Positions 38,566 to 48,978 of a stretch of DNA of 64,000 nucleotides are shown here, piece after piece (within the stretch, counting starts at the first letter, position 1; every line of letters starts with the position of its first letter). The notes under the pieces are model-generated. The model did not search any database, had not been told where the DNA came from, and saw only the letters and a list, made by a program, of their open reading frames with translations. The position numbers and the translations under genes are program-made. Source of the stretch: Deltaproteobacteria bacterium (lineage in GTDB: Bacteria; Desulfobacterota; Binatia; UBA9968); contig VGTH01000005.1 of assembly GCA_016874755.1 (NCBI GenBank), positions 51,547-115,546 of the forward strand, given 5' to 3'.

Positions 38566-39726
38566 TCAGTTGTGGCTCGCCTGCAGCACCGGCTGCCGGA
38601 TCGTCAAGTCTTCGTTCCCAGCGAAAGCAAAACGCTTCAGCGCCACTGGATCGAGCTCTATACCCAAGCCGGGTTTATCCGGCGGAATCAGAGATCCCTT
38701 TTCGAATCGCACCGGCTCTTTCAACAGCTCTTCGCGTAGCGGGTTGTAGGTGTAATCGAGCTCCATGACGATGCACTCTTGCACAGCCGCGGACAGATGC
38801 ACGCTCGCTGCTAGCGCGACCGCATCGCCCCAGGTGTGAAAGGAAACTTGCACGTTGTTCTTTGCTGCCAGGGCGGCAACTTTGCGAATTTCAGTGACAC
38901 CGCCGACGCGCGCGACATCCGGCTGTAAGAAATCCACCGCGCCGCGGGCGATGAAATTTTCGAAGGCGTAGCGCATCTGCAAGTTCTCACCGACGGCGAT
39001 GGGCACTTTGCCTTCGCGACGCAAGAGCGCGTGCCCTTCGACGTCCTCAACAAACAGCGGTTCCTCTAACCAGAAGGCGCCGCTGTCGGCGAACGCCGCT
39101 GCCGCTTTGAGGCCGACGTCAATAGAATAGCCCTGGTTAGCGTCGGTCATGACGACAAAGTCTTTGCCTAGTTCCTGGCGCACGGCGCGGACGATGCGGA
39201 TGTCTTGATCGAGATCGAAGCCGACTTTGATTTTGACGCCGTGAAAGCCCTGCTCGGCGAAATCGTAGGCGCGCTTGACGACTTTGGAAACTTCTTCTGG
39301 ATAGAGCGCCGTCGCATACACCGGAACTTTGTCGCGGACTTTTCCGCCGAGGAGTTTGTAGAGCGGCTGGCCCTTCACTTTGCCGAGAATATCCCACAGC
39401 GCGATGTCGACACCGCTCAGCGCGATGACGCCCACACCGCGTGTGCCAAACTCTTTGTGCCCACCGCGATAGTAAGCTTTGTCCCAGACTGCATCGATAT
39501 TCGTCGGATCCATGCCGACCAGCATCGGTTTCAAAACCTTCGAAATGACCGCGTCGATCATCTCGCCGTTGCCAGAGGCGGAGCCGATGCCGCTGACGCC
39601 ATCGTCGGTGTCAACCTGAACGAGATTGGTCGCACGCATGGTGCGCACACCGGAACGGCTAAACACCTGGCCGGAGGCCGGCAGCTCAGTGCGCAAACGG
39701 ATGGTTTTGATGCCTGTGATCTGCAT
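38566..39726 (-). CDS. mandelate racemase/muconate lactonizing enzyme family protein (enolase superfamily)
   Basis: MQITGIKTIRLR N-terminal capping domain and the KxK / D / E / D metal-ligand pattern (KIKVGFDLDQD). Confidence 0.88.
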   Translation of the reverse strand: MQITGIKTIRLRTELPASGQVFSRSGVRTMRATNLVQVDTDDGVSGIGSASGNGEMIDAVISKVLKPMLVGMDPTNIDAVWDKAYYRGGHKEFGTRGVGVIALSGVDIALWDILGKVKGQPLYKLLGGKVRDKVPVYATALYPEEVSKVVKRAYDFAEQGFHGVKIKVGFDLDQDIRIVRAVRQELGKDFVVMTDANQGYSIDVGLKAAAAFADSGAFWLEEPLFVEDVEGHALLRREGKVPIAVGENLQMRYAFENFIARGAVDFLQPDVARVGGVTEIRKVAALAAKNNVQVSFHTWGDAVALAASVHLSAAVQECIVMELDYTYNPLREELLKEPVRFEKGSLIPPDKPGLGIELDPVALKRFAFAGNEDLTIRQPVLQASHN

Positions 39727-39758
39727 AGAGATTACTTTTTCGGATTCGGATTATGTAA

Positions 39759-39910
39759 CCGCAAAGAACGCAGAGAACGCAAAGAAATACAAAATTCGCG
39801 ATGACCATTACCGCTTGACCAGCTCTCAACGTATCTTATTGTGAGTGGTAAAATCCCCCAAGTCCGAGCGCGCGCAGCGCGCCTTTGTGTTCTTTGCGTT
39901 GCGGTTAAAT
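39759..39910. repeat. left repeat blocks flanking the cupin gene (3 x 9-bp CGCARAGAA iterons plus a second degenerate block)
   Basis: cgcaaagaa cgcagagaa cgcaaagaa at 39759-39790. Related block ...tgtgttctttgcgttgcggttaaat at 39869-39910. Confidence 0.65.
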
Positions 39911-39920
39911 TCTCCGGTTC

Positions 39921-40352
39921 TTATTTCATTTCCCAGAACTGCCCCGGGATCGCTTCGCCGTCCACCGTGATGTACGTATTCTCTACATCGGTCCGCTTGT
40001 TCCCTTCGGTGTCCATGCGGGTGAACTCCGGCGTGCCTTCGAGCGCGCTTACGCGCAGGAGTGCCAGTGGGATCGTGCCGGAGTTTTCAAAATAATAGTA
40101 AACCCCAGCGGGCAGCATGATCGCCTCGCCTTTGTTGAGAGTCTTCGGCTGATGTTCTTTATTGTAAAACGTCGCCTGACCGTCGAGCACGATGAATGTA
40201 TGGTCTTCGCCAAAGTGGGCGTGGAGTTTGTTTTTCCGCCCGGGCGCGTAGTAGTTGATACCCACCGACATCCGTTGGGTATCCGCCAGCGGAATGTGAC
40301 TGCGCCCGCCGGTGATCTTTGGGGTTTTGAGCTGATAGGTAAAAGCGTCCAT
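39921..40352 (-). CDS. cupin domain protein
   Basis: 143 aa with HAHFGEDHTFIVLDGQATF cupin motif 1 and LPAGVYYYFEN motif 2. Confidence 0.75.
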   Translation of the reverse strand: MDAFTYQLKTPKITGGRSHIPLADTQRMSVGINYYAPGRKNKLHAHFGEDHTFIVLDGQATFYNKEHQPKTLNKGEAIMLPAGVYYYFENSGTIPLALLRVSALEGTPEFTRMDTEGNKRTDVENTYITVDGEAIPGQFWEMK

Positions 40353-40387
40353 TAGTGTCCTCCAAACGATAAAAGGGTTTGTCTGCT

Positions 40388-40486
40388 TATCTTTGCGTTC
40401 TCTGCGTACTTTGCGGTTAAATGGTGCGTTTCACAATCTGGGCGCGCAGCGCCTTTTGTGCTTCCTTGTGCTCTTTGTGGTTTCCC
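40388..40486. repeat. right repeat blocks flanking the cupin gene
   Basis: tatctttgcgttctctgcgtactttgcgg (40388-40417) is the inverted copy of the left iteron block. 40441-40486 (gcgcgcagcgccttttgtgcttccttgtgctctttgtgg) is a direct copy of 39869-39910. Confidence 0.65.
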
Positions 40487-40583
40487 AATCCGTCTTCCCC
40501 TATACCCCAGCCGCTTCTCCTTGAAAAGAGTCGCATCCCTGGTCTATTTTGAGCGCGACTAAGGACCGGAAAGGAATTCGCAC

Positions 40584-41492
40584 ATGGCCAACATCGGACT
40601 CTGCTGGGTTAACCCCGCCCCACTCACCAAAGGTGAAAATCTCATCAACTTCGCCAAAAAGACCGAAGCGATGGGCGCGCACTCGATGTGGACCATCGAC
40701 CGCATCGCTTACGACAATTTGGAGCCACTAACCCTGCTGGCCGCTGCTGCAGGTGTGACGCAAAGAATTCGCCTTGGCACGTCCGTGTTGCTCGGCAACA
40801 CGCGCCACGCGGCGCACTTGGCCAAGATCGTCGCGACCATCGATTACATCTCCAATGGCCGCATCACCCTCGGCCTCGGCTTCGGCAGCCGCGAGCCGGA
40901 CTACAAAGCCATCGAAGTGCCCTGGGATCACCGCGGTACCCGAGCCGTCGAACAAGTTCAATTGATGAAACGGCTCTGGACCGAAGACAACGTTACTCAC
41001 AAAGGCAGATTCTACAACGTGGAAAACCTCACCCTTGGCCCAAAACCAATCCAAAAACCCCACCCACCGCTCTGGACGGGCGGCAGCGCCGAGACATCGC
41101 TGAAGCGCGCCGGCATGTGGGCTGACGGCTTCATCTCCGGCAGCTCCGCCATTGCCGACTTCCACGTCACCTGGGACAAAATCGCCAGCTACGCCGTCGC
41201 CGCCGGCCGGGACCCAAACAAGATTACCAAAGCCAGCCTGGCCTTCATGGCGATCAACGACGACAAAGCCAAAGCGATCAAAGCCGTCGAAGATTACACG
41301 ACACGCTACTACGGGCGCGTGAGAACGCCAGTTGAACCGGTGTCGATTGTTGGTGGAGCTGAGCAGTGCATCGACAAGATTCAATATTTTCTGAGTAAGG
41401 GACTCGACACATTGATCATCGGCGTGGCCGATCCGGATCCGCGGCAACTAGATTTGTTTGGGGAGAAGGTCTTGCCGAAGGTGAAGGCTTAG
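40584..41492 (+). CDS. luciferase-like monooxygenase (LLM, flavin or F420-dependent oxidoreductase)
   Basis: MANIGLCWVNP...HSMWTIDRIAYDNLEPLTLLAAAAGVTQRIRLGTSVLL TIM-barrel LLM signature. Confidence 0.88.
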   Translation: MANIGLCWVNPAPLTKGENLINFAKKTEAMGAHSMWTIDRIAYDNLEPLTLLAAAAGVTQRIRLGTSVLLGNTRHAAHLAKIVATIDYISNGRITLGLGFGSREPDYKAIEVPWDHRGTRAVEQVQLMKRLWTEDNVTHKGRFYNVENLTLGPKPIQKPHPPLWTGGSAETSLKRAGMWADGFISGSSAIADFHVTWDKIASYAVAAGRDPNKITKASLAFMAINDDKAKAIKAVEDYTTRYYGRVRTPVEPVSIVGGAEQCIDKIQYFLSKGLDTLIIGVADPDPRQLDLFGEKVLPKVKA

Positions 41493-41559
41493 CAAGATGA
41501 ATTAACGGATCTTTATTCGAGGCGATCACCAAATTCGATCACCTGCGAACTGCGACACA

Positions 41560-41932
41560 AGGATTATCCGCCGTTTCTTGCAGCGTTAAAAAACGTATCG
41601 TCAACGCACGTACCAAGGCAGCCCGTGCAATCAATCGCGAATTGGTTTTGCTGTATTAGGACATCGGTCGGGGGATCCTCGAAAAGCAACAGACCGCTGG
41701 ATGGGGCGATTCCGTGGTAGAGCGGCTTGCTGCAGACTTGCGCACCGCGTTCCCCGATATGAGCGGTTTCTCTGTGGCGAATCTGTGGCGGATGAAACAG
41801 CTTTTTCTCGAACACAACTCACCGGAATTTCTCTCACAAGCTGTGAGAGAATTGGTTGCGGCCGAGCAACGCTTCACAGGGTGCAACGTCAAGAAACTCT
41901 TGACTGCCGGCGATATCACTTCAGTTGCCTAG
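41560..41932 (+). pseudogene. YhcG/DUF1016-family PD-(D/E)XK nuclease gene remnant with an in-frame TAG and C-terminal truncation
   Basis: ...KKRIVNARTKAARAINRELVLLY*DIGRGILEKQQTAGWGDSVVERLAADLRTAFPDMSGFSVANLWRMKQLF matches the conserved DUF1016 N-terminus (aNsaLVlLYWeIGrrIledqq...GFSrrNLryMRqFy). The stop at 41657-41659 replaces the conserved Trp. The ORF ends after about 125 codons. Confidence 0.6.
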
Positions 41933-42029
41933 AGATCTAAAAGATGGTCTGAAAAATAGATATTTTATGCGTATGCTGAATCGTTACCCTGCCAACTAAC
42001 GCCGCTTTCTACTACTCGCAACTAGCCTC

Positions 42030-42497
42030 ATGGGACTTCAGTTGATTGGTGCGCCGCATTTCGCGCGGGCCCAAGAAACAATTCATCTCGCGCTGCCTTC
42101 TAAGGCTTTTCAATTTTCCATCGCCCGTGACCGCGGTTATATGAAGGAAGAAGCGCCTGGCGGCCCTAGCCAGCGCCTGCCTCGGCCTCGCCACCAATTG
42201 CAGTCCTACAAATCAACTAACGAGGCCTTTCCTGAAGACCTTACAGGCATCCCGGCAACGAATCTCACCGACCCTTGGGGCAATGCCTACGAATATCTCA
42301 AGATCGAAGGCGCGGATACAAAGTCCAAGGGCAACATGCGCAAGGATAAAAATCTGGTGCCAATCAACTCCGACTTCGACCTCTACAGCAAGGGCGCGGA
42401 CGGCAAATCCACCGCGCCGCTCACGGCGTCCGCAAGCCGAGACGATGTAGTGCGTGCCAACGATGGGCGCTATTTCGGGCTTGGAGAAAATTACTAG
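42030..42497 (+). pseudogene. chimeric ORF: NMT1-SBP N-terminal fragment fused to a fragment resembling a GspG pseudopilin C-terminus
   Basis: Residues 15-43 (IHLALPSKAFQFSIARDRGYMKEEA) parallel LQQIIFPLAVERGYMKEEDIDL of the intact NMT1 paralogs. The C-terminal part DPWGNAYEYL...FDLYSKGADGK resembles GspG pseudopilin C-termini. No prepilin leader is present. Confidence 0.35.
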
Positions 42498-42715
42498 CAG
42501 GTTCTGTCGTCGGTCGAAATGAAAAGCAGCGTTATCGACCTCTGAGACCTACCGTATCGCAGAGATTGCACGCCGAGGCACGAAAGCGCGATGCCACGAG
42601 ACGCGCTTCGCGAAATACGCTCCCGTCTCTCACCCCGGGAGTTTGAGAGTTTTTCACAGCCATGTACACTGGGCGCCGGATCGATTGTGCTTGATTCAAT
42701 CGTTCGAGGCACTGA

Positions 42716-44167
42716 ATGGCTGCACGCACTGGCGCTCAATATCTTGCCGGGCTCGCCGACCAACGTGAGATTTGGTTTGATGGTCGGCGTGTCGCAGGCG
42801 TTGTCCAACATCCCATCCTCGGCCGGATGGCGCGCACGCTTGCCGACTTATACGATCTTCAGTGCGATCCGGCGCTGCGCGAGCAACTGACCTATACTTC
42901 GCCGTCATCCGGCACATCTGTTGGGCTTTCATTTCTGCAGCCGCGCAGCGTCGATAATTTGATCCGCAAACGCGGTATGTATAAGCACTGGGCCAACTAT
43001 AGCGGCGGCATGCTCGGGCGCACACCGGATTATTTGAACGCGATTCTTGCCGGGTGTGCTTCGGCCAAGTCCTATTTTGCGAAGAATGGCGCGGAGTACG
43101 CCGAGCGAATCGTTGCCTATTACGAGCACTGCCGCGAACAGGATCTGTGCGCGACCCACACGTTTGTCGACCCGCAGATCAATCGCGCGCGCAGCCAGTC
43201 CGAACAGCGCGATCCGACCGTGCCGCTGCATATCGTCGGCGAGAATGCCCAGGGACTCATAGTAAGCGGCGCGCGCATGCTGGCGACGTTGGCGCCGTAT
43301 TCAGACGAGCTCTACGTTTTTCCTTCGCCGTCGCGCACGCAGCAGAGCGATGCGCCCAAGTTTGCGTTCGCGTTCGCAGTGCCGGTGGCCACGCCGGGGC
43401 TGAAATTCATCTGTCGCGAGAGCCTCGACAGCGGCGGTGCGCCGAGCGACTATCCGCTGACGGCGCGCTTCGAAGAAATGGACGCCGTGGCGGTGTTTCA
43501 TGAAGTGGTCGTGCCCTGGGAGCGGGTCTTTCTCAAAGGCGATATTTCGCTCTGTAATAGATTGTTTCGCGAGACGCCGGCGTTTCTCCACGGCATTCAT
43601 CAGTTCACGGTTAAGAACCTTGCCAAGGCGGAATTCATCCTCGGTGTGGCAACTCTGGTTGCGGAAGCGATCGGCCGCATCGAGATGGCGGAGTACCAAC
43701 GCATGCTCGGCGAGATCGTCGACGTCGTCGAAACGCTGCGCGCCTACATCCGTTCCGCGGAGGCCGACGCTATCACTGACGAGCACGGCTTTGTTCATCC
43801 CAATCCCAATATCATGTCGACGGCGCGCAATTATTTCCCGAAGGCTTATCCGAGAATCGTCGAAATTCTGCAGCTGATCGGTTCGAGCGGCTTGATGGCG
43901 ACGCCCAGCGAGAAAGATTTGACTGCGCCGGCGCTGTCGGAAGACATCGACCGCTACTATCAATCGGCGACGTTGATGGGCAAAGAGCGGGTGCAGCTAT
44001 TTCGCTTGGCTTGGGATCTTTCTTGCAGCGCCTTTGCCGGTCGTCAGGTTTTGTACGAGAGATTTTTCGCGGGCGATCCGTTCCTATTGATGGCGAGCCG
44101 GTTTACGAGCTATGACCGAAGCGAAGCCGTGGCCCGGGTCAAGAAAATGCTGGGGAGAAGCGCGTAG
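42716..44167 (+). CDS. HpaB/TftD-family two-component flavin-dependent aromatic monooxygenase, oxygenase component
   Basis: YSGGMLGRTPDYLNA, IVSGARMLATLAPYSDE and MDAVAVFHEVVVPWERVFL align with conserved HpaB blocks. 483 aa. Confidence 0.8.
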   Translation: MAARTGAQYLAGLADQREIWFDGRRVAGVVQHPILGRMARTLADLYDLQCDPALREQLTYTSPSSGTSVGLSFLQPRSVDNLIRKRGMYKHWANYSGGMLGRTPDYLNAILAGCASAKSYFAKNGAEYAERIVAYYEHCREQDLCATHTFVDPQINRARSQSEQRDPTVPLHIVGENAQGLIVSGARMLATLAPYSDELYVFPSPSRTQQSDAPKFAFAFAVPVATPGLKFICRESLDSGGAPSDYPLTARFEEMDAVAVFHEVVVPWERVFLKGDISLCNRLFRETPAFLHGIHQFTVKNLAKAEFILGVATLVAEAIGRIEMAEYQRMLGEIVDVVETLRAYIRSAEADAITDEHGFVHPNPNIMSTARNYFPKAYPRIVEILQLIGSSGLMATPSEKDLTAPALSEDIDRYYQSATLMGKERVQLFRLAWDLSCSAFAGRQVLYERFFAGDPFLLMASRFTSYDRSEAVARVKKMLGRSA

Positions 44168-44188
44168 CGAATCAACGCAGGAGCAAAC

Positions 44189-45172
44189 ATGAACATCGAT
44201 TTTCACGCCCATATTTATCCCGAAGATTATCTGAAGAAGCTCGAAGCCTCGACCGGCGACGTGCGCATCGAAACCGACGCCAAGGGGCAGAAGTGGATAT
44301 TGAGCATGGGCGCCAAGGCCGGGCCGATCACGCCCGACTTTTTCGACGGCGACACGCGAGTGGCGCGGATCACGGAGAACCGGGTCGACATGCAGATTTT
44401 GTCTTCGCCCCATCCCGGCGTCGACCGCTTCTCGCCCAGTGAAAGCGCTGAGATGAGCCGGATCATCAACGATGGCATCGCGACACTGGTGCGGAAATAT
44501 CCAAAACATTTTCAAGGCGTGTGCATGCTGCCGCTGATCGATACCAAGCTGGCGTTGAAGGAATTAGATCGCGCCGTGCTTGATTTGGGATTGAAGGGCA
44601 TGTGTATGCTGTCCAACGTCGCAGGAAAAACCTCCGATGCCGATTTCTTGCTGCCGGTCTACGAGCGCACCCAGGAGCTAGGTGTGCCGATTTTTATTCA
44701 CCCGACCACGCCGCTGGGCGCGGCGGTGATGCAGGAATGGCGGCTGGCGATCATTCTCGGCTTTGAGTTCGACATCGTTTTGTCGGCAACGCGGCTGGCC
44801 TATTCGGGTATTCTCGATCGTTTTCCCGAATTGAATTTTGTGATTTCCCATCTCGGCGCTGGCATTCCGTTCCTCGCCGGGCGCATCGACCGTGGCTACT
44901 TCGATCCGACCTGCGGTATCAAGACAAAGAAACCGACGTCGGAGTACCTGCGCGATCTCTATTGCGACACTGTGTCATTTTACCAACCGGCGCTGCAGAT
45001 GGCGTACGATTTCTACGGTGCGGAGCGAATGGTTCTAGGCAGCGACTTCCCGCTGATCATCGGCGATTTGCCCGGTGCCGTGCCGAGCATCGAGGCGATG
45101 AATATTCCGAACCGGGAGAAGGAAAAAATTCTCGGCGAGAACGTCAAACGGCTGCTCAAGTTGAGTATTTAG
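44189..45172 (+). CDS. amidohydrolase-2 family protein (ACMSD/decarboxylase-like)
   Basis: MNIDFHAHIYPEDYL and the TIM-barrel metal-ligand pattern. 22 nt downstream of the HpaB-like gene. Confidence 0.88.
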   Translation: MNIDFHAHIYPEDYLKKLEASTGDVRIETDAKGQKWILSMGAKAGPITPDFFDGDTRVARITENRVDMQILSSPHPGVDRFSPSESAEMSRIINDGIATLVRKYPKHFQGVCMLPLIDTKLALKELDRAVLDLGLKGMCMLSNVAGKTSDADFLLPVYERTQELGVPIFIHPTTPLGAAVMQEWRLAIILGFEFDIVLSATRLAYSGILDRFPELNFVISHLGAGIPFLAGRIDRGYFDPTCGIKTKKPTSEYLRDLYCDTVSFYQPALQMAYDFYGAERMVLGSDFPLIIGDLPGAVPSIEAMNIPNREKEKILGENVKRLLKLSI

Positions 45173-45212
45173 GTCGCAAGTTGAAAAGCCATCGAAGCCA
45201 AGCAGGGAAAGC

Positions 45213-45349: not shown

Positions 45350-45546
45350 GGAAAGCTCCTTTCGCTTTCAGCACGCCGATAATCAACAAAGGCCAATCAC
45401 GGGCTCACACGCCGTCAAGGAAAATCGGAAATCATAAACGAATGCAGCGGCTTACCATCCGTAGCGCAAGTGTGAGCATTTGTGCTATAAGGCAAGAGCT
45501 TGAATTGCATGTGTTTTCTAATGCTTGGGCGAAAGGAAGGTTACAC

Positions 45547-46560
45547 ATGACGTTTTTCAGAACGCCGTACCGACGAAAATCCTCAATTAAATATCAAACT
45601 ATTCTTTGCGCGGCGATCATACAGGCATTGATGGTTCACGGTGTAGTCAATATTTTCGCAGCCGAGGTGACACTGGCGCTACCGGCCAAGAGTCTTCAGC
45701 AGATCATCTTTCCGCTCGCGGTGGAGCGCGGCTACATGAAGGAAGAAGATATTGATCTCAAGATTACTTTCATGGAACCGGCGCCGAGTATGCAAGCGAT
45801 GCTCGCAGAGAGTGTGCAAATCACCGCGGCGGGCGGTAGCGCTTTGATCGCGATTGCGCGCAGCAACTATCCTGCGAAAGTCGTACTCGCGGTCAACGAT
45901 CGGGTGCACCAGTGGGTGATCAGTAGACCGACCGTTGGCAGTATCAAAGACCTCAAGGGCAAAGCGTTGGCCACTACCGGTGTGGCGTCGCTGGCGACTT
46001 TCATGTTCAAGAACATCATGCCCAAGTACGGCCTTGACCCGAGCAAAGATATCACCTTCACCGATCCGGGCGTGAACAACCAGGCGATGGCTGTCATGTC
46101 GGGAGCGGTGGAAGCGGCGATCGTCAGCGTCGAACAGCGTTACGCGGCGCTCGACAACGGCATGAAGGAACTCATGTATCTCGGCAACGAAGTCAAAAAC
46201 TCCTGGGGCACAACGGCCGCCTCGGAGAAATTCATGAAAGAGCAGCCTAGAGTCGTGGCGGGATTCATGCGCGCGACGTTGAAAGCCTTGCGCTTGATCA
46301 AGCGCGATCGCGCCGGCACCATCGCGGCGTTTGCCAAGTTCTCCGGCTTGCCGGTGGCGACCTCGACGCGGCTCTACGACGATTTGATCGGTTCGTTTAC
46401 GGCCAATGGCGCGGTGGATGAAGAAACCCAAAAGAATGATCTCGGGGTGATCCGCCAGGTGCTCGACGCCAAGGAAGCGCTGGCGCCGGCGCGCGCCTTC
46501 GACTTTAGCTTTGCCATCGAGGCCGACCGGCAGTTGACGAAGCTGGGGTGGAAACCATAA
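45547..46560 (+). CDS. NMT1/THI5-like periplasmic substrate-binding protein (NitT/TauT family), orphan
   Basis: Signal peptide then LALPAKSLQQIIFPLAVERGYMKEEDIDLKI. Start at ATG 45547 after aaggaagg. No cognate permease or ATPase adjacent. Confidence 0.8.
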   Translation: MTFFRTPYRRKSSIKYQTILCAAIIQALMVHGVVNIFAAEVTLALPAKSLQQIIFPLAVERGYMKEEDIDLKITFMEPAPSMQAMLAESVQITAAGGSALIAIARSNYPAKVVLAVNDRVHQWVISRPTVGSIKDLKGKALATTGVASLATFMFKNIMPKYGLDPSKDITFTDPGVNNQAMAVMSGAVEAAIVSVEQRYAALDNGMKELMYLGNEVKNSWGTTAASEKFMKEQPRVVAGFMRATLKALRLIKRDRAGTIAAFAKFSGLPVATSTRLYDDLIGSFTANGAVDEETQKNDLGVIRQVLDAKEALAPARAFDFSFAIEADRQLTKLGWKP

Positions 46561-48006: not shown

Positions 48007-48978
48007 ATGAAGCTAAAACTCTCTCTCACGATCGCGCTGCAATTTGTCTTTTTGTCTGCGCTTGGCGCCCAGCAGCTCCAGACCGTCAACTTCGCCACGC
48101 CATCGCGAAGCTTTCAGTTGGCGATCTATCCGATCGCGCAGGAGCGCGGCTACATGAGGGAAGAAGGCATCGATCTGCGCGTTATCAACGTCGCGCCAAC
48201 CACGAGTGTGCAGGCGTTGCTCGGCGGCGACGTGCATTTCACCGGCGCCGGCACCAGCGCGGCGCTTGGAGTGGCGCGCTCGAACATTCCCGTGAAAGTT
48301 GTGATCGCGACCAACGACCGCGTGCTGCAGTGGCTGGTGGCTAATCCGAAGATCACCAGCGTGAGAGATCTCAAAGGAAAGAGGATAGCCACCACCGGCG
48401 TTGCGGCGATCGCTACGTTCATGCTCAAACAGATTCTCGCCAAGCATGGGCTTGACGCCAACAAAGACGTGATTTTTCTCGACCCGGGACAAGGCAACCA
48501 GTTAACCGCTTTGCTGTCGGGCGCCATGGATGCGGCGGTGTTAGGTATCGATCAGCGCTATCCGGCGATAGACAAGGGCATGAAGGAGCTGTTCTCGTTC
48601 GGTAACGAAGTGAAAAACTCCTGGGGCACGCTGGCGACCACCGATAGGCTCATCAAAGAAAATCCGAAGATGATCGCCGGCTATTTGCGCGCGAGTTTGA
48701 AAGCGCTGCGCTACATGCGCCAGGATCGCGACGGTACCATCGCGTCGGTGGCGAAGTTCTCAAACATTTCTCGGCAACTTGCCGCGCGCACTTACGATGA
48801 CCTGCTCGGCACCTTTACACCCAACCTGACCGTCGACGACGAGACTCAGAAGAACGATCTCAACATCATTCGCCAGGTCGTCAACGCCCCGGACGCGGTG
48901 CCGAACAATCGGGTCTACGATTTTAGTTTTGCCCTGGAAGCCGATCAGCAGCTAAGCAAGACGGGGTGGAGGCCCTAG
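48007..48978 (+). CDS. NMT1/THI5-like periplasmic substrate-binding protein, paralog of 45547..46560
   Basis: Collinear blocks with the 45547 gene (ERGYMREEGIDL, RDLKGKRIATTGVAAIATFMLK, NEVKNSWGT). Confidence 0.8.
   Translation: MKLKLSLTIALQFVFLSALGAQQLQTVNFATPSRSFQLAIYPIAQERGYMREEGIDLRVINVAPTTSVQALLGGDVHFTGAGTSAALGVARSNIPVKVVIATNDRVLQWLVANPKITSVRDLKGKRIATTGVAAIATFMLKQILAKHGLDANKDVIFLDPGQGNQLTALLSGAMDAAVLGIDQRYPAIDKGMKELFSFGNEVKNSWGTLATTDRLIKENPKMIAGYLRASLKALRYMRQDRDGTIASVAKFSNISRQLAARTYDDLLGTFTPNLTVDDETQKNDLNIIRQVVNAPDAVPNNRVYDFSFALEADQQLSKTGWRP

Follow-up and report, generated by a model that had tools for sequence, protein, structure and literature searches.

The window analysed here is a 64,000-nt stretch of a Candidatus Binatia-type metagenome-assembled genome (MAG), in which two intact forward-strand genes enclose a gap filled with gene fragments. 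The left-hand gene encodes a luciferase-like monooxygenase (LLM, 40584..41492, + strand; Pfam Bac_luciferase, 183 bits) and is the final gene of a conserved left synteny block. The right-hand gene encodes an HpaB-like flavin monooxygenase (42716..44167, + strand; Pfam HpaB_N, 316 bits, and HpaB, 198 bits) and opens the right block; an NCBI MAG protein encoded on a 176.9-kb contig matches its product at 100% identity. The LLM stop lies at 41492 and the HpaB start at 42716, and the ORF listing and the Pfam scan confirmed the first-pass annotation that about 1.2 kb here holds no intact gene, the exact length being 1223 nt (41493-42715). The gap contains pieces of three unrelated genes, namely a DUF1016/YhcG gene, an NMT1-type binding-protein gene (SBP_X) and a GspG-like prepilin gene. 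With remnants of three genes and multiple lesions mapped, the earlier description of the region as a gene-decay hotspot held.

The first remnant, a DUF1016/YhcG (PDC-S02) pseudogene at 41520..41866 (+ strand), was delimited by Pfam DUF1016_N, PADLOC and alignment with the positional orthologue in locus L008. The frame at 41501-41932 reads ...NRELVLLY*DIGRG..., and the previously noticed replacement of the conserved Trp codon of the LVLLYW motif is present in the sequence (TGG to TAG at 41657-41659). With W restored at the stop, the translation matched Pfam DUF1016_N (PF17761) with 90.5 bits over profile positions 2-92 of 137, well above the cut-off of 32.8 bits, and the PADLOC PDC-S02 profile with 119 bits, and the proposed family assignment thus passed its HMM check. 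Base-by-base alignment with L008 revealed four point lesions: the start ATG is AGG at 41520-41522, a second ATG is ATC at 41538-41540, a 1-nt deletion after 41587 shifts the frame, and the TAG interrupts it. Homology to L008 stops at 41860-41866, which marks a 3' truncation; the 3' two-thirds are gone, and of ~400 codons the remnant keeps the N-terminal ~117. The first reading of this frame, about 125 codons with a single TAG, was correct in the TAG but not in its being the only lesion, and the last ~23 codons are unrelated sequence. The YhcG_C nuclease domain (PF06250) is absent, since tblastn with the full-length L017 protein detected nothing past residue 106 in the whole window. No uninterrupted frame with a start codon was found in the remnant. 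Its dN/dS against L008 was 0.047, and the synonymous divergence of the DUF1016 segment was significantly below that of the flanking genes.

The DUF1016 remnant is followed by an orphan spacer of ~91 nt (41867..41957), in which the DUF1016 frame runs on as unrelated sequence until the TAG at 41930-41932 and the GC profile reaches its local minimum (0.47). Comparison of this spacer with L012, the window and 153 loci gave no significant match. A tblastx match of L031 to an orphan stretch (E = 0.001) was dismissed, as it lies in a short open frame and in no gene.

The 5' remnant of SBP_X (41958..42152, + strand) was recognized by alignment with L012 and runs from the start region through the signal peptide into the first ~30 mature codons. 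Its first ATG is lost while an ATG at 41967 is kept, a nonsense codon (TAA, 41997-41999) lies inside the signal peptide, and a 9-nt in-frame deletion is located at 42113/42114. The 3' end of the gene is preserved as the last five codons and the stop at 42152..42169 (+ strand; AGC GCC TGG CGG CCC TAG, that is SAWRP*), and SBP_X's own stop thus survives at 42167-42169. This end was identified by a 21-nt BLAST match (90% identity) to positions 941-961, the SBP_X 3' end, of L069, the sole match that the search of the orphan stretches produced; the ...GW(R/K)P* ending is shared by L071 and the two SBPs of the window. Because the 3' end stands in another frame than the 5' remnant, an out-of-frame internal deletion, estimated at ~0.7-0.8 kb with its junction at ~42150-42153, is indicated, and the first ~66 and the last 5 codons are left. 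The remnant therefore no longer encodes a signal peptide followed by an intact mature protein, being broken by the TAA, the 9-nt deletion and the out-of-frame internal deletion. SBP_X dN/dS against intact relatives was 0.012.

A 155-codon ORF begins within this remnant, and its start had been taken as paralogous to the NMT1 proteins of the window. Residues 1-41 did match the N-termini of the NMT1 proteins at 48007 (E = 2e-6) and 45442 (E = 5e-5) by tblastn, and the similarity as such stands; it is not a copy of them, as the amino acid identity to these paralogues is only 35-41% and the SBP_X genes of L012 and L069 are much closer (78% nt identity; in L012 the segment 1396-1488, in an alignment running from the SBP start codon). 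The profile check gave no NMT1 match (PF09084) for the 155-codon ORF, in which ~30 mature residues remain, while full-length SBP_X orthologues scored 73-84 bits.

A spacer of 28 nt (42170..42197) separates the SBP_X stop from the 3' remnant of the GspG-like prepilin gene (42198..42497, + strand), which consists of the last 100 codons and the stop at 42495-42497. The spacer may be decayed pilin sequence from ~42186 on, where the BLAST alignment with L002 begins; a candidate extension of pilin homology upstream of 42198 was rejected as not significant by a shuffle test of 42170-42200 (196-589 of 2000 shuffles). Downstream, 218 nt upstream of HpaB (42498..42715) form the right edge of the breakpoint without a detectable homologue, and neither this stretch nor 42170-42197 had a match in the window or the 153 loci. 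No Rfam match to a structured RNA was obtained in the gap, and promoters or terminators there were either not found or in no excess over chance; the one sigma-70-like match, at 42643-42670, is no more than expected by chance.

Residues ~57-155 of the ORF match more than 2,800 GspG-like prepilins (2821 hits, best 88% identity), the best relative being the intact 154-aa P0002 in L012 (80% nt and 88% aa identity). The ~54 lost codons carried the leader, the N-methylation motif and the hydrophobic helix, and a six-frame search of 41400-42720 for a prepilin leader with the G/FxxxE motif and hydrophobic helix found none, in agreement with the first-pass annotation. The fragment alone scored a marginal 19.9 bits with Pfam T2SSG (PF08334; cut-off 21) and 12.6 bits with TIGR01710, while it is directly homologous to members that pass PF08334 (E down to 1e-52). 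The proposed resemblance to a GspG C-terminus is thus sound as direct homology, but it did not reach the T2SSG profile threshold. Intact relatives scored 54.8-58.7 bits with TIGR01710, below the NCBIfam equivalog cut-off of 88.85, and intact homologues carry N_methyl (PF07963, 34-36 bits) and T2SSG. The pilin dN/dS against L012 was 0.052, with a saturated dS of 1.56. The remnant lies outside any pilus or secretion cluster, its window neighbours being LLM and HpaB, and the intact homologues P0005 and P0007 adjoin PilY1, PilX and GspH-like genes.

The 155-codon ORF (42030..42497, + strand; ORF listing) is a single frame across the SBP_X pieces, the spacer and the pilin remnant. It starts within what was the signal peptide, at an ATG (42030) that no Shine-Dalgarno motif precedes, and its 15-residue linker is out-of-frame SBP_X sequence plus spacer. 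The ORF exists because the internal deletion of SBP_X shifts the frame and bypasses the retained stop at 42167-42169; translation from ATG 42030 would miss this stop, cross the 28-nt spacer and enter the pilin frame. Lacking a ribosome-binding site, the front of its signal peptide, and the leader and assembly helix of a pilin, the ORF appears from these sequence features to be an accidental read-through by-product that is probably not expressed as a useful protein. The claim of a chimera of an NMT1-SBP and a GspG fragment is accordingly right about the two pieces, but their membership of one accessory element with DUF1016 did not survive the comparison with relatives.

A set of ~25 Binatia-type MAGs shares the synteny of the left block (31-41.49 kb), which in every one of them breaks off at the LLM stop; LLM itself gave a dN/dS of 0.026 against L008. 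Comparison of the orthologous loci, as originally proposed, showed that L017 has an intact gene here, encoding 402 aa with DUF1016_N+YhcG_C, and L008 a truncated DUF1016 adjoining an AbiEii-like ORF, with no DUF1016 match at the site in the 22 other syntenic MAG loci examined. This presence/absence polymorphism together with the PDC-S02 match upheld the view of the DUF1016/YhcG piece as an accessory, defence-type remnant, and we infer that the gene came in by horizontal transfer. The L017 left junction is unlike the one common to the window and L008, and no direct repeats were seen at the L017 DUF1016 insertion relative to the empty sites of L018 and L021. An amidohydrolase gene follows the LLM block in six close relatives (L017-L021, L039). 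In L069, SBP_X stands directly upstream of orthologues of the window's SBP45442 and Amido2, which assigns SBP_X to the neighbouring catabolic cluster. In L012, pilin and SBP_X are adjacent in this order, opposite to that of the window (SBP_X, then pilin), and the pair adjoins an accessory RlaP nucleotidyltransferase gene. L149-L153 have the order bicupin-HpaB(-Amidohydro_2); the bicupin is absent from the window without a remnant upstream of HpaB, and homology begins at the HpaB ATG.

Taken together, 41493-42715 is very probably non-functional DNA, a small pseudogene graveyard at the place where the conserved gene block ends. The DUF1016/YhcG gene just 3' of LLM lost its starts, suffered a frameshift and a nonsense mutation, and is now without its 3' two-thirds, the PD-(D/E)XK domain among them; SBP_X gained a nonsense codon, a 9-nt deletion and the out-of-frame internal deletion; and the GspG-like prepilin gene lost its first ~54 codons. 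From dN/dS values of about 0.01-0.05 between the fragments and intact relatives we infer that the decay is probably recent; it seems to proceed by small and large deletions, with the usual bacterial deletional bias. Functional controls gave dN/dS of 0.026 and 0.009. The low fragment dN/dS also fits continued selection, and with dS saturated (0.6-1.6) a branch-specific test is powerless. Erosion is ongoing: a JGI contig from another sample (L007) is otherwise identical and differs only by a further 39-nt deletion (42114-42152).

The reversed order of SBP_X and pilin could have arisen in two ways, either by a tandem duplication whose junction joins the sequence right behind the SBP_X stop to about codon 55 of the pilin gene, or from a different ancestral gene order followed by deletion. 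A simple tandem duplication predicts a decayed pilin 3' end upstream of SBP_X, and the candidate region 41860-41960 aligned with L012 no better than shuffles did. Beyond plain decay, we put forward, as an unlikely suggestion, that the site 3' of LLM is a recurrent landing and turnover spot for small defence cargo in Binatia, or that the reversed SBP_X/pilin junction is a tandem duplication that shuffled the catabolic cluster. The recurrent landing spot is suggested by DUF1016 being intact in L017, truncated in L008 and decayed here, by the differing L017 left junction and by the lower synonymous divergence of DUF1016. If either were true, the locus would be a small record of the gain, rearrangement and erosion of defence genes or operons in an uncultured phylum.

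The whole gap had also been regarded as what is left of a single mobile or defence island, which would have brought DUF1016, SBP and pilin together and then been excised or degraded. The PDC-S02 match of DUF1016 agrees with this, as do the variability of the site among relatives, with an AbiEii-like ORF there in L008, and the RlaP gene beside the pilin-SBP_X pair of L012. We nevertheless consider it improbable, as SBP_X is contiguous in L069 with orthologues of the window's right-hand cluster, the intact pilins reside in chromosomal pilus clusters, the pilin occurs in 0 of the other ~80 SBP_X-related loci, and SBP_X or pilin in 0 of ~25 LLM loci. The hallmarks of a mobile element were likewise missing: no flanking or att-like repeats beyond chance were present in 40500-43500, no tRNA in the window, and no integrase or transposase by Pfam match among the window ORFs scanned or by inspection of 39000-45000. 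The accessory-element reading therefore keeps its decay and its accessory DUF1016 gene and loses the membership of the chimeric ORF and the excision; what the data favour is a series of deletions where synteny breaks.

Whether the 155-codon ORF is a real new chimeric gene under selection, encoding a soluble or weakly exported protein with a globular C-terminal pilin domain, was weighed against the decay of its parts. The frame is open over 155 codons, the pilin core is identical in amino acids to P0002 at a dN/dS of 0.052, gene calls in at least three contigs include this ORF, and the 39-nt deletion of L007 keeps the frame, as expected of a selected ORF. But a deletion has a one-in-three chance of keeping the frame anyway, low dN/dS is expected of any recently inactivated gene, and the contigs bearing the ORF are all 100% identical and represent one population, with no conservation across divergence. 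Moreover, ATG 42030 has no ribosome-binding site and lies within an ex-signal peptide stripped of its charged N-region, the linker is out-of-frame SBP_X sequence and spacer, and the pilin part has neither the family-defining leader nor the assembly helix, which together make a selected gene very improbable.

An assembly artefact, either a chimeric contig join or sequencing errors producing the TAG and the frameshift, might be suspected from the metagenomic origin of the genome and from the left and right blocks never being adjacent in ~25 related MAGs. This is scarcely credible, since L001, a Logan assembly made independently (15.8 kb), matches 39800-45200 at 100% identity, L007 from the other sample spans 41769-42868 including the DUF1016/orphan, SBP_X/pilin and pilin/HpaB joins, the LLM/DUF1016 join is common to L008-L011, and base-calling errors cannot account for four separate lesions and a truncation together. 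It is just as hard to credit that the DUF1016 N-terminal fragment still functions alone, for example re-initiated at GTG 41714: short DUF1016_N-only ORFs are common among database relatives, and the window fragment keeps family-consensus residues and a low dN/dS (0.047) against L008, but its copy has lost both starts, is frameshifted and carries a stop, its longest post-stop piece covers less than half of the domain, full-length relatives (389-415 aa) were found in the same clade by exhaustive search, and the short ORFs inspected are truncated pseudogenes themselves. One of those two adjoins an IS200-type (Y1_Tnp) transposase gene and the other is the product of a frameshift and a deletion, and a genuine 'DUF1016_N-only' family was rejected.

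Compared with known systems, the N-terminal domain of the first remnant is clearly homologous to YhcG/DUF1016, a family of predicted endonucleases (PMC1189080) enriched beside restriction-modification and inversion loci (PMC9881135), and like them it is a patchy accessory gene at one site. Unlike a working member, it retains ~117 of ~400 codons, without nuclease domain or start and with a frameshift and a stop. In the pilin fragment the GspG-type globular domain shows its DPWGNxYxY and FDLYSxGADGK motifs, but the fragment has no leader, N-methylation site or hydrophobic helix, and its intact relatives sit, in other lineages, in type IV pilus-like clusters (PilY1/PilX) and not in T2SS clusters. 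The SBP_X remnant resembles NMT1/SsuA (PF09084) in its signal peptide and first mature residues (QETIHLALPSKAFQ...ARDRGYMKEE) and in the C-terminal WRP* ending, but with about 66 + 5 codons left, a stop and an out-of-frame deletion it differs from such proteins, of which the window has two intact paralogues. Multiple deletions, point lesions, a polymorphic deletion and a spurious ORF taken up by gene callers are all familiar from bacterial pseudogene erosion, and the only oddity is the fusion of fragments from genes that neighbour each other in the opposite order in L012.

In conclusion, the locus is ordinary bacterial gene decay and reveals no new biological principle. Public collections list the 155-aa ORF as a protein; it ought to be marked there as a fusion of pseudogenes and given neither a hypothetical-protein nor a pilin label, and the DUF1016 piece calls for a pseudogene annotation. 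The locus illustrates that a long spurious ORF can arise from an out-of-frame internal deletion, and it provides a dated multi-lineage snapshot of a PDC-S02 candidate defence gene decaying at one chromosomal site.

Between the stop codon of the luciferase-like monooxygenase (LLM) gene at 41492 and the start of the HpaB-like flavin monooxygenase gene at 42716, ORF and Pfam searches found no intact gene in the 1223 nt at 41493-42715, as the first-pass annotation had held, and both elements it had described there, a DUF1016 frame with a TAG at 41657-59 and a 155-residue ORF, were present. The block from position ~31 kb to the LLM stop is syntenic in ~25 Candidatus Binatia-type MAGs, and in every one of these the similarity to the window ended at that stop codon. 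On the other side, a bicupin gene lies upstream of the HpaB orthologues (83-84% identity) but was absent from the window. Since left-hand synteny ends at the LLM stop and right-hand homology begins only at the HpaB ATG, the gap is the junction of two blocks that are adjacent in no relative examined. An independent Logan assembly (L001) was 100% identical over 39800-45200, the right-hand joins were spanned by L007, a JGI contig from another sample, and the LLM/DUF1016 join was common to the Logan assemblies L008-L011. Searches of the gap gave no Rfam family and no excess of promoters or terminators.

A single cupin gene lies upstream of LLM in the window (39921-40352) and in L008, while the closest GTDB relatives (L017-L021, L039) carry two in tandem, with 83% and ~57% identity to the window cupin. 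In three more distant Binatia-type loci (L029 9151-10146, L139 4721-5293, L144 6001-6573), the gene directly after LLM codes for an NMT1-type binding protein with 53-55% identity to that of SBP_X, the binding-protein gene discussed below, so LLM and such a gene may long have been neighbours in some of the clade. The tblastn segments of the LLM orthologue in L039 (8001-8907) and of the MR_MLE orthologue in L028 (6268-7422) were split and overlapping, which suggests frameshifts, due perhaps to genuine gene decay or else to indel errors in those assemblies.

The DUF1016 frame at 41501-41932 reads ...KKRIVNARTKAARAINRELVLLY*DIGRGILEKQQTAGWGDSVVERLAADL... When the stop was read as W, it matched Pfam DUF1016_N with 90.5 bits (cut-off 32.8; the match spans only profile positions 2-92 of 137) and PDC-S02, a candidate single-gene phage-defence family of PADLOC, with 119 bits (430 bits for a full-length relative), supporting the proposed similarity. 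A single nonsense mutation had been reported; the TAG is in the sequence, but the count was too low, and base-by-base alignment with the L008-L011 relative revealed four point lesions plus a truncation. The first start codon is lost at 41520-22 (ATG to AGG) and the second in-frame ATG at 41538-40 (to ATC), one nucleotide is deleted after 41587 (TTGAAGAAA to TT-AAAAAA), and TGG is changed to the TAG. Homology stops at 41860-66, past ...VRELVA, the remainder of the frame is unrelated, and no trace of the PD-(D/E)XK nuclease domain YhcG_C was found anywhere in the window. Given the additional lesions and the truncation, the remnant is a deeply disabled pseudogene, and a sequencing error at the TAG, if any, would still not rescue the gene.

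In L008-L011 (~82% nt identity), the order MR_MLE, cupin, LLM and DUF1016 ORF is as in the window, and the last begins ~10-30 nt past the LLM stop, depending on the ATG chosen. The L008 ORF ends at residue 201, just short of the nuclease domain, and no nuclease remnant follows; unrelated small ORFs come next, then an ORF, cut off by the contig end, with a match to the AbiEii toxin profile over the N-terminal portion of that profile. An amidohydrolase-like gene (381-389 aa) follows LLM in six close relatives, directly and within ~60-190 nt in L018-L021 and L039, and with an intact 402-aa DUF1016_N+YhcG_C gene in between in L017. With an intact copy in L017, a truncated one in L008 and none detected in the 22 other syntenic loci examined, DUF1016 is an accessory gene at one fixed site, and the comparison supported the view of a degraded accessory gene. 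This pattern agrees in kind with the literature, in which the YhcG/DUF1016 family is a predicted PD-(D/E)XK endonuclease (PMC1189080) and 'DUF1016 family protein' is strongly enriched beside restriction-modification and inversion-target genes (PMC9881135).

The 201-aa ORF of L008 (7983-8588; also P0121/P0122) has radical substitutions where the family is otherwise invariant (AGWG to AGRG, GRGI to GRRI, FPDM to FPHM), which argues that this copy is probably decaying too despite its open frame; the disabled window copy has kept the consensus residues there. The closest 120 word-indexed relatives of the DUF1016 fragment (P0121-P0240) are all ≤242 aa and nearly all consist of DUF1016_N only, some on contigs of 50-800 kb; an exhaustive search found full-length relatives of 389-415 aa. 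Two short ORFs inspected (among L154-L157) were truncated pseudogenes, one beside an IS200-type (Y1_Tnp) transposase gene and the other combining a frameshift and a deletion. Among environmental genomes, truncated copies of DUF1016 seem to be frequent.

The second ORF (42030-42497, 155 residues) ends in a pilin remnant of the last 100 codons only (42198-42497). Its pilin part gave 2821 matches among 5.8 billion proteins searched, and the best full-length ones (P0002, P0004, P0006-P0008; 153-155 aa) were ≤88% identical to residues ~57-155. These homologues carry a prepilin leader and helix (GFTLIELLVA...), contain N_methyl, pass the Pfam T2SSG cut-off and stay below the NCBIfam GspG equivalog cut-off (54.8-58.7 bits vs 88.85); their N-terminal helices are like the Geobacter PilA-N and GspG structures. 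Homologues at 76-78% identity adjoin PilY1, PilX and GspH-like genes. No leader was found in any of the six reading frames of 41400-42720, as the first-pass annotation had stated. The closest intact pilin, in L012 (807-1271, + strand), lies outside any pilus cluster, between an RlaP-type nucleotidyltransferase gene (3-587, - strand) and SBP_X (1289-1957, + strand). The seven contigs that carry this pilin gene are all <2 kb, perhaps a hint of a repeat or of low coverage.

Residues 1-41 resemble the window's two NMT1 proteins (E = 2e-6 and 5e-5), as had been noted, but these are not the closest source, the segment being much nearer SBP_X, an NMT1-type gene found 17 nt past the intact pilin P0002 in L012-L015. 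The 5' end of SBP_X has 78% nt identity to 42068-42151, and the alignment can be followed upstream as far as the start region of the gene, at ~41958. Relative to L012, the window copy has lost the first ATG, has a nonsense TAA within the signal peptide (41997-99) and lacks 9 nt at 42113/14. Directly past ...YMKEE, the window has AGC GCC TGG CGG CCC TAG, the last five SBP_X codons and stop (SAWRP*), in a 21-nt BLAST match (90% identical) to the 3' end of SBP_X in L069; the ...GW(R/K)P* ending also occurs in L071 and both window paralogues. Because the 5' remnant abuts SAWRP* out of frame, SBP_X has undergone an internal deletion, of ~0.7-0.8 kb as estimated from 315-369-aa orthologues. This deletion shifts the frame so that the retained stop at 42167-69 is missed, the 28-nt spacer is crossed and the pilin frame is entered by chance, which fully accounts for the chimeric ORF. 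The ORF was judged probably non-functional because its ATG (42030) sits within the former signal peptide and lacks the Shine-Dalgarno motif present at the HpaB and Amido1 starts. On this reading, the chimeric ORF is an accidental read-through across two pseudogenes, one of a binding protein with an internal deletion and one of a pilin that has lost its 5' part.

In L069, SBP_X (85% aa identity) stands immediately before orthologues of the window genes SBP45442 (83%) and Amido2 (88%), an order that places SBP_X in the neighbouring catabolic cluster and not in a foreign island. The fragment order is SBP_X-pilin in the window and the opposite in L012. The window junction could have come from a different ancestral gene order followed by deletion, or in a single step from a tandem duplication bounded by a point just past the stop of SBP_X and another near pilin codon 55, although no further decayed pilin end was found when the sequence upstream of the SBP_X remnant was searched. 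Elsewhere, SBP_X also occurs in mobile, rearranged surroundings: at L071 146-1409 and 3279-3695, a 78%-identical homologue is flanked by a transposase-like ORF, whose frame looks disrupted, and a PIN/VapC-like gene, both called by eye only. In the window, the first NMT1 gene (45442-46560) encodes 372 aa from 45442 (longest ORF) or 337 aa from 45547 (public gene call), and 270 nt past Amido1 have no assigned function.

The dN/dS was 0.052 (dS 1.56) for the pilin fragment and 0.012 (dS 1.33) for the mature SBP_X fragment against L012, and 0.047 (dS 0.63) for the DUF1016 fragment against L008; the functional controls against L008 gave 0.026 (dS 1.40, LLM) and 0.009 (dS 1.03, cupin). These values indicate purifying selection on all three genes for nearly the whole time since the lineages split, and hence inactivation that is recent on the same scale, but because dS is saturated they are also compatible with ongoing selection. 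The DUF1016 dS (27 differences/63.5 synonymous sites; window 41588-41860 vs L008 8052-8324) was lower than that of adjacent LLM (Fisher p = 0.004) and not significantly so against the cupin alone; the defence gene could have a later shared origin or have recombined, or the two genes could simply differ in codon bias. L007 was identical to the window over 41769-42868 save an extra 39-nt deletion (42114-42152), which abuts the first junction and has the look of continuing deletional erosion.

Excision of a mobile element is without evidence, with no repeats beyond chance around the gap and no tRNA in the window. In conclusion, the observation of gene decay was confirmed, with more numerous lesions than reported. 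Its reading as the scar of an accessory element holds for the DUF1016 piece, the decayed remains of an accessory or defence-type gene at a site that varies among relatives, and fails for the chimeric ORF, which did not belong to such an element. The locus shows pseudogene erosion of an ordinary kind, at a point where synteny breaks in an uncultured bacterium of Binatia type, and the main use of the result is annotation correction.
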